IMG/VR virus record: IMGVR_UViG_2537562223_000006
Strand: one strand, 5' to 3'
Source of the DNA: a virus
Taxonomy: Duplodnaviria > Heunggongvirae > Uroviricota > Caudoviricetes
DNA length: 46,570 nucleotides
In this document: positions 1,431 through 3,937 of the stretch, one piece after another
How positions within the stretch are numbered: position 1 is the first letter of the stretch
Layout of the letters: the number at the start of each line of letters is the position of its first letter
Program-made: the position numbers and the translations under genes
The notes under the pieces: model-generated
Databases searched by the model: none
Seen by the model: the letters and a program-made list of their open reading frames with translations, nothing else
Told to the model about the DNA's origin: nothing

Positions 1431-2489
1431 AATTTTGTCCCACTCCCTGCCTCTGTCATCACGATACTGTGATGCCATGGTGTCCGACTTATGCCCGAGA
1501 AGATGTTGAGCAAACTTATCGCTTATCTGCTTCTCATAGAGTCTTGCAGACAAACTGCGCAACTCGTGAAAGGTAGGCGGATCCCCTTCGAAGGAAAGAC
1601 CTGATGCTTTTCGTGCGCGCATAAAATACCTTGATACTGTGCCGGATGAAAGCGGTTCGCGACGAGTAGATGCAATTATGGTTTCTCCGCCAAGAATCTC
1701 TTTGCATTTATCAAGTGTTTCCTTCATTGATATTCCGAGAGCATCAACATGCAATGCTGTTGGGATGGCAATTTTTACGCCTGTTTTGCTTTGCTCGACA
1801 TAAAGATATCCATCTACGATATCAGACCACTTCATTTCGCATAAATCACCAACTCGTTGCCCGGTAACAACAGCCAGTTCCATTGCAAGTCTGAGCCAAC
1901 ATGGTGATGATTCTGCTGCTTGATAAATTTTCAGGTATTCGTCAGCCGTAAGTCTTGATCTCCTTACCTCTGATTTTGCTGCGCGAGTGGCAGCGACAGG
2001 GTTTGTTGTTATATGGCCTTCAGCTATTGCCTCTCGGAATGCATCGCTCAGTGTTGATCTGATTAACTTGGCTGACGCCGCCTTGCCCTCGTCTATGTAT
2101 CCATTGAGCATTGCCGCAATTTCTTTTGTGGTGATGTCTTCAAGTGGAGCATCAGGCAGACCCCTCCTTATTGCTTTAATTTTGCTCATGTAATTTATGA
2201 GTGTCTTCTGCTTGATTCCTCTGCTGGCCAGGATTTTTTCGTAGCGATCAAGCCATGAATGTAACGTAACGGAATTATCACTGTTGATTCTCGCTGTCAG
2301 AGGCTTGTGTTTGTGTCCTGAAAATAACTCAATGTTGGCCTGTATAGCTTCAGTGATTGCGATTCGCCTGTCTCGGCCTAATCCAAACTCTTTACCCGTC
2401 CTTGGGTCCCTGTAGCAGTAATATCCATTGTTTCTTATATAAAGGTTAGGGGGTAAATCCCGGCGCTCATGACTTCGCCTTCTTCCCAT
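1419..2489 (-). CDS. int: Lambda-type integrase (tyrosine recombinase)
   Basis: 356-aa ORF starting MGRRRSHERRDLPPNLYIRNNGYYCYRDPRTGKEF; near-identical to lambda Int by recall; ATG at 2489. Confidence 0.97.
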   Translation of the reverse strand: MGRRRSHERRDLPPNLYIRNNGYYCYRDPRTGKEFGLGRDRRIAITEAIQANIELFSGHKHKPLTARINSDNSVTLHSWLDRYEKILASRGIKQKTLINYMSKIKAIRRGLPDAPLEDITTKEIAAMLNGYIDEGKAASAKLIRSTLSDAFREAIAEGHITTNPVAATRAAKSEVRRSRLTADEYLKIYQAAESSPCWLRLAMELAVVTGQRVGDLCEMKWSDIVDGYLYVEQSKTGVKIAIPTALHVDALGISMKETLDKCKEILGGETIIASTRREPLSSGTVSRYFMRARKASGLSFEGDPPTFHELRSLSARLYEKQISDKFAQHLLGHKSDTMASQYRDDRGREWDKIEIK

Positions 2490-2599
2490 TTCTGATCCTC
2501 TTCAAAAGGCTACCTGTTACTGGTCGATTTAAGTCAACCTTTACCGCTGATTCGTGGAACAGATATTCTCTTCCATCCTTAACCGGAGGAGGGAATATC
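2467..2599 (-). pseudogene. xis: Excisionase xis, 3' fragment (codons ~31-72), separated from its 5' part by the IS insertion
   Basis: Reverse strand translates ..IFPPPVKDGREYLFHESAVKVDLNRPVTGSLLKRIRNGKKAKS*, stop overlapping int start as in lambda. Confidence 0.9.
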
Positions 2600-2671
2600 T
2601 GAAGTGGTTTACTGAATTTGGCCACCTGAACAAAGGTGATATGCTCACCTCAGAACAACACAGGTGTCATA

Positions 2672-2974
2672 ATGAAAAAAAGAAATTTCAGCGCAGAGTT
2701 TAAACGCGAATCCGCTCAACTGGTCGTTGACCAGAACTACACCGTGGCAGATGCAGCCAGCGCTATGGATGTCGGCCTTTCCACAATGACGCGATGGGTG
2801 AAACAATTACGTGATGAACGGCAGGGCAAAACACCAAAAGCCTCCCCCATTACCCCGGAACAAATTGAAATCCGTGAGCTCAGGAAAAAGCTACAACGTA
2901 TTGAAATGGAAAATGAAATATTAAAAAAGGCTACCGCGCTCTTGATGTCAGACTCCCTGAACAGTTCTCGATAA
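2672..2974 (+). CDS. IS911-like OrfA (HTH transposase accessory protein)
   Basis: [46 protein letters not shown]..; leucine-zipper-like C-terminus; matches IS911 OrfA by recall. Confidence 0.9.
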
Positions 2975-3840
2975 TCGGGAAACTCAGGGCGCGTTATCCT
3001 GTGGCCACTCTCTGCCATGTGTTCGGGGTTCATCGCAGCAGCTACAAATACTGGAAAAACCGTCCTGAAAAGCCAGACGGCAGACGGGCTGTATTACGCA
3101 GTCAGGTACTTGAACTGCATGGCATCAGCCACGGCTCTGCCGGAGCAAGAAGCATCGCCACAATGGCAACCCAGAGAGGCTACCAGATGGGGCGCTGGCT
3201 TGCTGGCAGACTCATGAAAGAGCTGGGGCTGGTCAGTTGCCAGCAGCCGACTCACCGGTATAAGCGTGGCGGTCATGAGCACGTTGCTATCCCGAATCAT
3301 CTTGAGCGACAGTTCGCCGTAACGGAACCAAATCAGGTGTGGTGCGGTGATGTGACCTATATCTGGACGGGTAAGCGCTGGGCGTACCTCGCCGTTGTTC
3401 TCGACCTGTTCGCAAGAAAACCAGTGGGCTGGGCCATGTCGTTCTCGCCGGACAGCAGGCTCACCATGAAAGCACTGGAAATGGCATGGGAAACCCGTGG
3501 TAAGCCCGTCGGGGTTATGTTCCACAGCGATCAAGGCAGCCATTATACGAGCAGGCAGTTCCGGCAGTTACTGTGGCGATACCGGATCAGGCAGAGTATG
3601 AGTCGGCGTGGAAACTGCTGGGATAACAGCCCAATGGAGCGCTTCTTCAGGAGTCTGAAGTACGAATGGGTGCCGGCGACGGGCTATGTAAGCTTCAGCG
3701 ATGCAGCTCACGCAATAACGGACTATATCGTTGGATATTACAGCGCACTAAGACCGCACGAATATAATGGTGGGTTACCGCCAAACGAATCAGAAAACCG
3801 ATACTGGAAAAACTCTAACGCGGTGGCCAGTTTTTGTTGA
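2672..3840 (+). CDS. IS911-like OrfAB transposase, produced by programmed -1 frameshift at A_AAA_AAG (2923-2929); OrfB part carries the DDE integrase core
   Basis: Downstream -1 frame ORF (ATG-delimited part 3001-3840) with IS3-family OrfB features (..WCGDVTYIW.., ..[10 protein letters not shown].., ..[12 protein letters not shown]..); slippery heptamer in orfA zero frame. Confidence 0.85.
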
Positions 3841-3848
3841 CCACTTCA

Positions 3849-3937
3849 ATCCTGCATTCGCGCACCCATCGACGAACTGTTTCAAGGCTTCTTGGGCGTC
3901 GCTGGCGAGCGTTCCACTCCTGAAGTGTCAAGTACAT
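3849..3937 (-). pseudogene. xis: Excisionase xis, 5' fragment (codons 1-30), interrupted by the IS insertion
   Basis: Reverse strand from ATG at 3937 translates MYLTLQEWNARQRRPRSLETVRRWVRECRI, the lambda Xis N-terminus; the two fragments plus one copy of the 3-bp duplication sum to 219 nt (72 codons + stop). Confidence 0.9.

Follow-up and report, generated by a model that had tools for sequence, protein, structure and literature searches.

A complete copy of the insertion sequence ISEc52 interrupts xis, the excisionase gene of a lambda-type prophage that occupies the window, the whole stretch of 46,570 nucleotides analysed here. We consider it likely that ISEc52 transposed into this gene and left a null xis allele, with excision of the prophage strongly reduced and expression of int probably lowered. 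An earlier note on the same DNA had described xis as split by an IS911-like element of the IS3 family with a 3-bp target duplication, a description that is confirmed by the anatomy of the element, its ATC/ATC flanks and the gapless repair of the gene.

The interrupted xis gene and its empty site

Read directly in the window, the element spans positions 2600-3848 (1249 bp, plus strand), begins with TGAAGTGG and ends with CCACTTCA, and is bordered by two copies of ATC, at 2597..2599 on the left and at 3849..3851 on the right, exactly the limits and direct repeats that had been proposed. Target duplications of the IS3 family measure 2-4 bp, typically 3 (PMC3299598), and a second copy of the same IS, examined as a control in genome L001, is also flanked by a 3-bp duplication (TTT/TTT). 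The match of two 3-bp flanks, taken alone, has a chance probability of 1/64. Deletion of 2600-3851, that is, of the IS and one ATC, restores the expected 72-codon xis, and the repaired Xis is identical to the intact allele of uninterrupted relatives. The repaired region of 1,849 nt aligns with two uninterrupted prophages with 0 gaps and 99.6% identity, 1,632 nt of it align with lambda at 98.7% identity, also without gaps, and the 247-nt repaired site has a 100% identical counterpart in many complete E. coli genomes. Judged by these alignments, the gapless restoration of the empty site is not the work of chance. The repaired protein covers positions 1-77 of the Pfam Exc profile (PF07825, 139.3 bits), differs from lambda Xis at a single residue (G59S), and matches PDB 1PM6 over residues 1-72 (E=7e-45) apart from C28S in 1PM6.

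In its present state, xis is read from the minus strand in two pieces. Xis residues 1-30 are encoded from 3937 to 3848, the third base of codon 30 being the last base of the IS; the earlier note had located this N-terminal part correctly and ended it at 3849, a trivial shift of one base. The frame then continues for 10 codons into the IS before a stop, so that the DNA-binding domain (1-55) and the C-terminal tail are no longer covered by an uninterrupted ORF. The resulting 40-aa hybrid ORF (3815..3937, minus strand; Pfam Exc 1-31) has been deposited on 6 contigs, as END01996.1 and further records, under the name “excisionase-like family protein [E. coli P0302308.11]”. The remainder of the gene lies where it had been reported, with I30/F31-S72 and the stop encoded by 2598-2467, and this 3′ fragment (2467..2599, minus strand, codons 30/31-72 plus stop; Pfam Exc 29-77, also found by tblastn with Xis) overlaps the start of int by 23 nt. 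Across the IS, the xis reading frame contains 20 stops. The only start for the C fragment is a GTG inside the IS, and on reading the sequence no Shine-Dalgarno-like motif was seen close upstream of it. Given the lack of a visible ribosome-binding site nearby and of any record in public assemblies, no product is proposed for this left-junction hybrid ORF (52 aa).

The DNA upstream of the gene is that of lambda, with window positions 3990-3921 identical to lambda 29131-29062. Just before the xis ATG, a TTGC-N6-TTGC box (3950..3963, minus strand), identical in lambda, occupies the position of the lambda pI/cII site, which we take it putatively to be, and a terminator-like hairpin with a T run, common to lambda, is found between orf55 and xis (3968..3987, minus strand).

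A complete element of the IS911 group

The inserted ISEc52 belongs to the IS911 group of the IS3 family. It is complete and differs by 1 nt from a copy annotated by PGAP as intact under the name [quoted passage not shown]. As in other IS3-family elements, it is limited by imperfect terminal inverted repeats with 5′-TG...CA-3′ ends: IRL (2600..2635, plus strand) and IRR (3813..3848, minus strand), each of 36 bp, agree at 24/36 positions, the terminal 9 being identical. The same length has been given for IRR in the literature (PMC1636345). Also characteristic of the family is a pair of successive ORFs that overlap in part and are read in phases 0 and -1, here orfA (2672..2974, plus strand), a 100-aa frame with an HTH_Tnp_1 domain (PF01527, 52 bits), and the orfB frame (2929..3840, plus strand), with an rve/DDE catalytic domain (Pfam rve, 109.6 bits). 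The slippery heptamer AAAAAAG at 2923..2929 (plus strand) is correctly phased in the orfA frame, as A AAA AAG, and a -1 frameshift at this point is predicted to join both ORFs as OrfAB. The predicted fusion of 389 aa is set apart by N331Y alone from WP_085929673.1, which PGAP annotates with “programmed frameshift”, and its WCGD, HSDQG and PMERF motifs are read as the DDE triad. Against the NCBIfam model NF033516 transpos_IS3 (cutoff 160), the transposase scores 381.6 bits, along positions 1-368 of the 369 in the profile.

Some ISEc52 copies measure 1250 bp, and the shortfall of 1 nt was considered as a possible defect and discarded: it is the 1249-bp form that PGAP calls intact and the 1250-bp copies that it calls “frameshifted”. 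An Rfam scan gave no match related to the IS or to xis, its sole match being IS009 in tfa.

Regarding the name of the element, the likeness to IS911, the type IS3-family element as represented by the copy in Shigella phage Sf6, is extensive and includes the 1249-1250 bp size class, the same terminal sequences, the 3-bp duplication, orfA and orfB with an A6G frameshift site, and a DDE transposase. Copies of IS911 also reside within temperate phage genomes (Sf6, SfII, SEN22), although there they lie under other annotated genes and not in xis. By the ISfinder convention, copies of the same element share about 95% or more of their nucleotides. Our element is 93.7% identical over its full length to the annotated IS911 of Sf6, short of the near-identity to a reference copy that IS911 in the strict sense implies, whereas it is 97.3-99.9% identical to copies annotated as ISEc52, and because of these values ISEc52 is, on nucleotide identity, the better name. 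Identity to the K-12 copies is 99.7% for the “IS911A” fragments and 89.6-95.8% for IS911B.

IS911 is known to carry out targeted insertion next to sequences that resemble IS ends. In the xis region, the best IR-like matches (18-19/36) are no better than those in control chunks of the window, and targeting of this kind was dismissed.

Attachment site, integrase and the other prophage genes

The prophage adjoins ybhC, the host gene to the left of the lambda attachment site (1..1284, minus strand), whose 427-aa ORF is 100% identical to WP_001091569.1, the ybhC product of genome L005. The 15-bp attL core, GCTTTTTTATACTAA (1331..1345, plus strand), is the only core match in the window, with the P′ arm extending onward to about 1487. 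From the core to the right the sequence matches lambda 27724-27880 without a difference, and to the left it is that of the bacterium, which makes a B-O-P′ junction: attL consists of a bacterial arm, the core and a P′ arm by int, next to ybhC. At the opposite side, the last position of the window (46570) falls within tfa, the gene for tail-fibre assembly, and both the right end of the prophage and attR, which would carry the P arm with the Xis, Fis, IHF and Int arm sites, lie outside.

The integrase gene (1419..2489, minus strand) encodes a lambda-type tyrosine integrase of 356 aa, 100% identical to the Int of uninterrupted relatives (WP_000533642.1), with two substitutions compared with lambda (H164P and I248V). 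The catalytic residues R212, K235, H308, R311, H333 and Y342 are kept, and the Pfam domains Arm-DNA-bind_1 and Phage_integrase are both recognised. Int is thus as intact as the earlier note had held, and it was likewise right that the IS runs against int and xis, being on the plus strand with both genes on the minus strand. The note had also regarded the head, tail and lysis genes as intact, and within the window this stands: an uninterrupted relative has 50-odd genes, and all of them map here at full length and free of stops. In contrast to laboratory lambda, the side tail fibre gene shows no interruption. The MT-A70 methyltransferase gene, a pseudogene in the relative, is here shortened at the N-terminal end. 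Among the cargo genes are a porin, a Lom-like protein, a lipoprotein and a PRTase-CE/NADAR pair.

By tblastn, no homologs of lambda N, cII, cIII, cI or Q were found, an absence that was rejected as a lesion, being a trait of the phage group that is common to uninterrupted relatives. Neither did Pfam hits or tblastn reveal another recombination-directionality gene among the early-left genes.

Distribution in E. coli

The same right IS-xis junction occurs in 6 draft-assembly contigs of E. coli P0302308.x, each with 1-3 nt of difference from the window along some 6.2 kb, and in 0 of 5,426 complete E. coli genomes. From this occurrence we conclude, at the level of assembled sequence, that the insertion is genuine and that it is restricted to a single E. 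coli clone (P0302308.x). Lambda-type xis genes are themselves frequent, being present in 1,982 of those complete genomes (about 36%), at a median of one place per genome and at up to 4. The best xis copy is partial in only 7 of these carriers, which speaks against xis as a hotspot for IS; in one of the seven, EC931, the truncation corresponds to a deletion or a module boundary, with no IS beside xis.

A related case is the prophage at the same site in E. coli CUPF12 (NZ_CP182159.1), where ISEc52 is found in the same xis and in the same orientation. Direct comparison discards it as the same insertion: it is an independent event, 39 bp away and without target duplication, in which the IS abuts emrE and ~8.6 kb of early genes, from the 5′ part of xis through ren, are deleted with respect to MS 145-7. 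Going by this arrangement, CUPF12 is a later stage of decay. Three independent copies of ISEc52, those of the window, of CUPF12 and of fECg99.1, are clustered in a span of about 630 bp in related prophages and share one orientation. One could imagine, as a doubtful extension, that the int-proximal end of lambda-site prophages is a preferred landing zone for ISEc52, where insertion in or near xis starts a stereotyped decay followed by IS-adjacent deletion of the early region, a step that the CUPF12 deletion illustrates.

Probable consequences for excision and alternative explanations

We propose that an active ISEc52 moved by copy-out-paste-in into codon 30 of xis, in a prophage residing at the lambda attachment site by ybhC, duplicating ATC on its way in; the event would be recent and restricted to one clone. 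In lambda, the C-terminal tail of Xis contacts Int. Both this tail and part of the DNA-binding domain (residues 31-55; structure in PDB 1LX8) would be lost, as the 40-aa product would keep only Xis 1-30 and lack over half of the protein, which amounts to a null allele. Deprived of Xis, recombination between attL and attR by Int would be inefficient, and induction would result in replication in situ and lysis, with few complete phage genomes released. Induction itself should still occur, the prophage having an SOS-type S24 repressor as well as its genes for replication and lysis. As for int, the IS is interposed between the gene and the promoters presumed to serve it from upstream, pL and the pI region identical to that of lambda, and at neither IS end was a promoter-like site found facing out toward int or the 200-aa ORF. 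Because the IS adds 1,249 nt of antisense, untranslated sequence that the int mRNA would have to traverse, Int expression is probably lowered by polarity, if the behaviour of lambda can be extrapolated to a phage in which no N or cII homolog was found.

The earlier note had gone further, calling the prophage probably excision-defective and locked in place. Lambda genetics makes this reasonable, although the wording should be softened, because excision at some level persists in lambdoid prophages whose Xis is not functional; Asadulghani et al. (2009, PMC2669165) observed it in Sp4 and Sp14 of O157 Sakai. On such grounds the prophage could still be mobile, either with Xis supplied in trans by another lambdoid prophage with a compatible xis or with enough excision by Int alone, and the insertion would then have little practical effect. 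The abundance of lambda-type xis among E. coli genomes, together with the complementation of defective prophages by one another in that same study, lends some credit to this explanation. Against it, the 46.6-kb window contains one xis only, and one place per genome is also the median. Classical genetics, moreover, describes lambda xis mutants as strongly excision-defective, and we judge continued mobility unlikely, though deserving of attention.

Somewhat less probable is a prophage that was already immobile or defective, because attR had been lost or damaged, because of a lesion outside the window or through an undetected regulatory defect, when the IS hit a gene that no longer mattered. The position of attR outside the window, the state of the MT-A70 gene and the tendency of IS elements to pile up in dispensable DNA would all agree with it, but attL and int show no flaw, nothing interrupts the side tail fibre gene, and the structural, lysis, replication and recombination genes in common with the relative are all full-length and free of stops.

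That the insertion was selected, anchoring a useful prophage against excision as a case of host domestication and not of neutral decay, seems improbable to us; the cargo genes and the independent ISEc52 in the xis of CUPF12 could be invoked in its favour, but so few partial copies give no sign of recurrent selection, the distribution is that of a single clone, and an inducible xis-null prophage would still kill the cell. Finally, repeated IS are a classic source of misassembly and the draft contigs with this junction break inside the IS, but an IS misplaced into xis as an assembly artefact is scarcely credible with a perfect 3-bp duplication, a gapless empty site and the same junction in 6 contigs that come from separate, independent assemblies.

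A probable first step of prophage grounding

Our preferred explanation, loss of xis through transposition of ISEc52, has its closest precedent in the xis mutants of lambda (Int+ Xis-, such as xis amber), which affect the same gene (71/72 residues identical to lambda Xis) at the same att site with an intact Int. Lysogens of this type are expected to be able to integrate, to show a strong defect in excision, to replicate in situ and lyse after induction, and to yield few viable phage. The present case differs in being a natural 1.25-kb IS instead of a point mutation, which may be polar on int, and in affecting a mosaic lambdoid phage that has a different immunity region, carries QuuD instead of Q and lacks an N homolog. 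The lambdoid prophages of O157 Sakai have also been inactivated piecemeal, Sp4 carrying an IS in nu1, and Sp4 and Sp14 combine an intact Int with a non-functional Xis; their Xis defects, however, are not IS insertions into a lambda-type xis, and they accumulate several lesions where a single one is visible here (PMC2669165).

“Grounded” prophages have been defined as those driven into irreversible lysogeny by defective recombination proteins or att sites, with subsequent decay (Ramisetty & Sudhakari 2019, PMC6379469), and in contrast to them the prophage of the window looks like the very first step, all else that is visible being intact. The xis::ISEc52 allele is a fresh example of a well-known type of event, an ordinary route of prophage decay with no new mechanism, by which the prophage has probably become stranded in the chromosome. 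Its value is that of a natural snapshot of the first grounding step, a single lesion in the directionality factor, for which the IS-adjacent deletion of CUPF12 depicts the likely next one. The E. coli P0302308 isolates would accordingly be predicted to carry an inducible prophage that kills the cell and releases few phages, and calls of “intact prophage” by tools based on gene content can overlook a small split gene such as this.

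Interruption of xis by an ISEc52 copy

The xis gene is interrupted by a 1249-bp element at 2600-3848, which starts TGAAGTGG, finishes CCACTTCA and is flanked by ATC on both sides (2597-2599 and 3849-3851). On the minus strand, 3937-3848 encodes MYLTLQEWNARQRRPRSLETVRRWVRECRI, followed by 10 codons of the element and a stop, and positions 2598-2467 encode (I)FPPPVKDGREYLF...KAKS and a stop; the two fragments cover positions 1-31 and 29-77 of the Pfam Exc profile. Removal of 2600-3851, the element with one ATC copy, brings xis back to 72 codons. The protein it then encodes matches the intact allele of relatives at every residue, spans 1-77 of the Exc profile (139 bits), and differs from lambda Xis solely by G59S and from PDB 1PM6 solely at residue 28, where the structure has C28S. 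In DNA alignments, the repaired stretch of 1,849 nt matches two uninterrupted prophages at 99.6% with 0 gaps, and lambda at 98.7% over 1,632 nt, and 100% identical copies of the repaired 247-nt site occur in many complete genomes. These results confirm the split xis described in the earlier note, whose coordinates hold within one base, and support, at the level of sequence, its interpretation as an IS insertion with a 3-bp target duplication.

The inverted repeats of the element are 36-bp long and imperfect (24/36 matching), with the outermost 9 positions identical. Its orfA (2672-2974) matches HTH_Tnp_1, an A AAA AAG heptamer lies in the correct phase at 2923-2929, and the orfB frame carries an rve domain together with the motifs WCGD, HSDQG and PMERF, which can be read as the DDE triad. 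The fused OrfAB (389 aa) reaches 381.6 bits against the NCBIfam IS3 transposase model (cutoff 160), and one nucleotide (N331Y) separates the element from a PGAP-annotated intact copy of the ISEc52 family with a programmed frameshift. Identity is 97.3% to the ISEc52 copies of E. coli fECg99.1 and CUPF12, 99.7% to K-12 fragments annotated as IS911A, 89.6-95.8% to IS911B, and 93.7% to the annotated IS911 of Shigella phage Sf6. The label “IS911-like” was thus accurate, and ISEc52 is the better name. According to the literature, IS911 transposes via a circular intermediate, by OrfAB (PMC1636345), and the direct repeats of its group measure 2-4 bp (PMC3299598); the ISEc52 copy in fECg99.1, taken as a control, shows a TTT/TTT duplication.

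The prophage and its gene content

The first gene of the window is ybhC (1-1284, minus strand), and the 15-bp lambda core GCTTTTTTATACTAA occurs a single time in the window, at 1331-1345. From the core rightward the window is identical to lambda 27724-27880 and leftward of it the sequence is bacterial; the junction is therefore a true attL (B-O-P'), and the prophage occupies the lambda attachment site. The right end lies inside the prophage, at tfa, with attR outside the window. The product of int (1419-2489, minus) is an integrase of 356 aa that departs from lambda at two residues (H164P and I248V), retains six out of six catalytic residues, and is 100% identical to the Int of relatives with a whole xis.

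All annotated CDSs of an uninterrupted relative, strain 2018-10-2CC, were translated and compared with the window by tblastn. Each of the 50-odd shared genes is full-length and free of internal stops, the sole split gene being xis. The set includes exo, bet, gam and kil, the replication genes O and P, quuD, the holin, lysozyme and Rz genes, and also terminase, portal, capsid and tail genes up to I. The earlier view that int and the head, tail and lysis genes are intact therefore stands. Past tail gene I come J, a lom-like gene, the side tail fibre gene and tfa. Of these, the fibre gene (42579-45986, plus) is a single uninterrupted ORF of 1,135 aa, whereas the lambda reference record has two separate ORFs (orf-401 and orf-314) in its place. 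The immunity region is unlike that of lambda, with an S24-peptidase repressor, a cro-like gene and a YdaT-like gene, and no homologs of lambda N, cII, cIII or Q were detectable in the window or in the uninterrupted relatives.

Several other loci deserve mention. At the place of lambda rexAB/N (8700-9780), the sole ORF (126 aa; 9174-9554, minus) has a lipoprotein-like N-terminus and a weak BamE-like match below the Pfam cutoff, and ~480 bp are free of ORFs. Outer-membrane cargo comprises an OmpC-like porin gene between quuD and the lysis cassette (17874-18968, minus) and the Lom-like protein gene after J (41921-42520, plus; 46% identity to lambda Lom). Two overlapping genes of the nin region, also found in the uninterrupted relative, encode a PRTase-CE domain (13915-14946, plus; Pfam PF24390, weak PADLOC PRTase_III-A match) and a NADAR domain (14936-15547, plus; weak PADLOC PDC-M42C match), a candidate defence or counter-defence cargo module. 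The MT-A70 / type II methyltransferase-like ORF at 13212-13703 (plus) is N-terminally short, beginning at profile position 26/172, and is probably a decayed methyltransferase; its 2018-10-2CC counterpart is an annotated pseudogene with an internal stop. At the lambda orf61/orf63 place of the early-left operon lies a 250-aa ORF (5743-6495, minus) that is absent in 2018-10-2CC and matched nothing in Pfam or PADLOC. A 200-aa ORF (4387-4989, plus), encoded against the direction of this operon and situated between orf55 and a TraR/DksA-like gene, is kept in relatives and has no family match; with long hydrophobic stretches in its translation, it looks like a membrane protein and a moron. Within tfa, a full-length Rfam IS009 match (RF02111, 224.6 bits; 46329-46527, plus) is a candidate small RNA and not an insertion sequence.

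Expected consequences for excision and int

The hybrid product keeps 30 of the 72 Xis residues; the DNA-binding domain (structure PDB 1LX8) therefore loses residues 31-55, and the C-terminal tail goes with them. Following the lambda literature, we take the lost part to include the wing of the winged helix and the Int-contacting tail. No other recombination-directionality gene was found among the early-left genes of the window. Lambda xis mutants suggest that attL x attR recombination would be strongly reduced here, and repressor cleavage, replication, packaging and lysis would still be expected in situ.

The prophage may be less firmly “locked in place” than previously proposed. The O157 prophages Sp4 and Sp14 still excise with no functional Xis, and defective prophages complement one another (Asadulghani et al., PMC2669165). 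Lambda-type xis is present in 1,982 genomes, 36% of complete E. coli, sometimes in several copies, and complementation in trans is a less likely alternative. Loss of excision through the xis knockout is a reasonable functional claim, made by analogy.

A 70-nt stretch that takes in the lambda pI/cII box and the start of xis is unchanged from lambda, which places the IS between int and both upstream promoters. Read in the xis frame, the minus strand through the IS meets 20 stops, and the IS end showed no promoter-like site directed at int. A polar effect on int is plausible from the lambda model, with extra caution because this phage is without a lambda cII or N homolog.

Spread of the insertion and other disrupted prophages

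Both IS junctions of the window have 0 occurrences among 5,426 complete E. coli RefSeq genomes. The 40-aa hybrid ORF, possible solely with the exact window junction, is on record as an “excisionase-like family protein” in six contigs of NCBI draft assemblies from the E. coli P0302308.x clone (GCA_000357605.2, GCA_000358735.1, GCA_000358875.1, GCA_000357765.2 and GCA_000357825.2); four of the six are 1-3 nt off the window over ~6.2 kb, and all end within the IS. An assembly artefact would have to recur with the exact junction on six draft contigs and is very unlikely. This distribution marks the insertion as genuine, inherited and limited to one clone. Disruption of lambda-type xis is rare, and a partial xis is the best copy in just 7 of the 1,982 genomes.

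The idea that defects in recombination proteins ground a prophage is well established (PMC6379469), as is the insertion of IS elements into prophage genes, and IS911-group elements also lie within the temperate phage genomes Sf6, SfII and SEN22. One of the seven genomes, CUPF12 (NZ_CP182159.1), carries ISEc52 at 2762-4011 in the same xis and in the same orientation, at window-equivalent 2561, 39 bp from the window's site, as an independent insertion. Its flanks (AAC/GGG) show no duplication and it joins emrE-ylcJ-ybcK directly; comparison with strain MS 145-7 indicates an IS-adjacent deletion of ~8.6 kb of early genes, from the 5' part of xis through ren; such deletions are a known sequel of IS insertion (PMC11708052). 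The third ISEc52, at 3391-4640 of fECg99.1 (NZ_CP085637.1), has the orientation of the other two and the TTT/TTT duplication noted above. It lies in a DUF4752 gene two genes past an intact xis, and the prophage that carries it is a relative integrated at that same att site. All three insertions fall within ~630 bp, where no IR-like target sequence explaining a regional preference was found. In E. coli EC931 (NZ_CP049118.1), the xis of an att-lambda prophage (3002-3118) is without its 5' part, with the break at window-equivalent ~2580 and no adjoining IS, a different route to Xis loss. What is described here is a routine IS knockout of xis, specific to one clone and of a kind already known.
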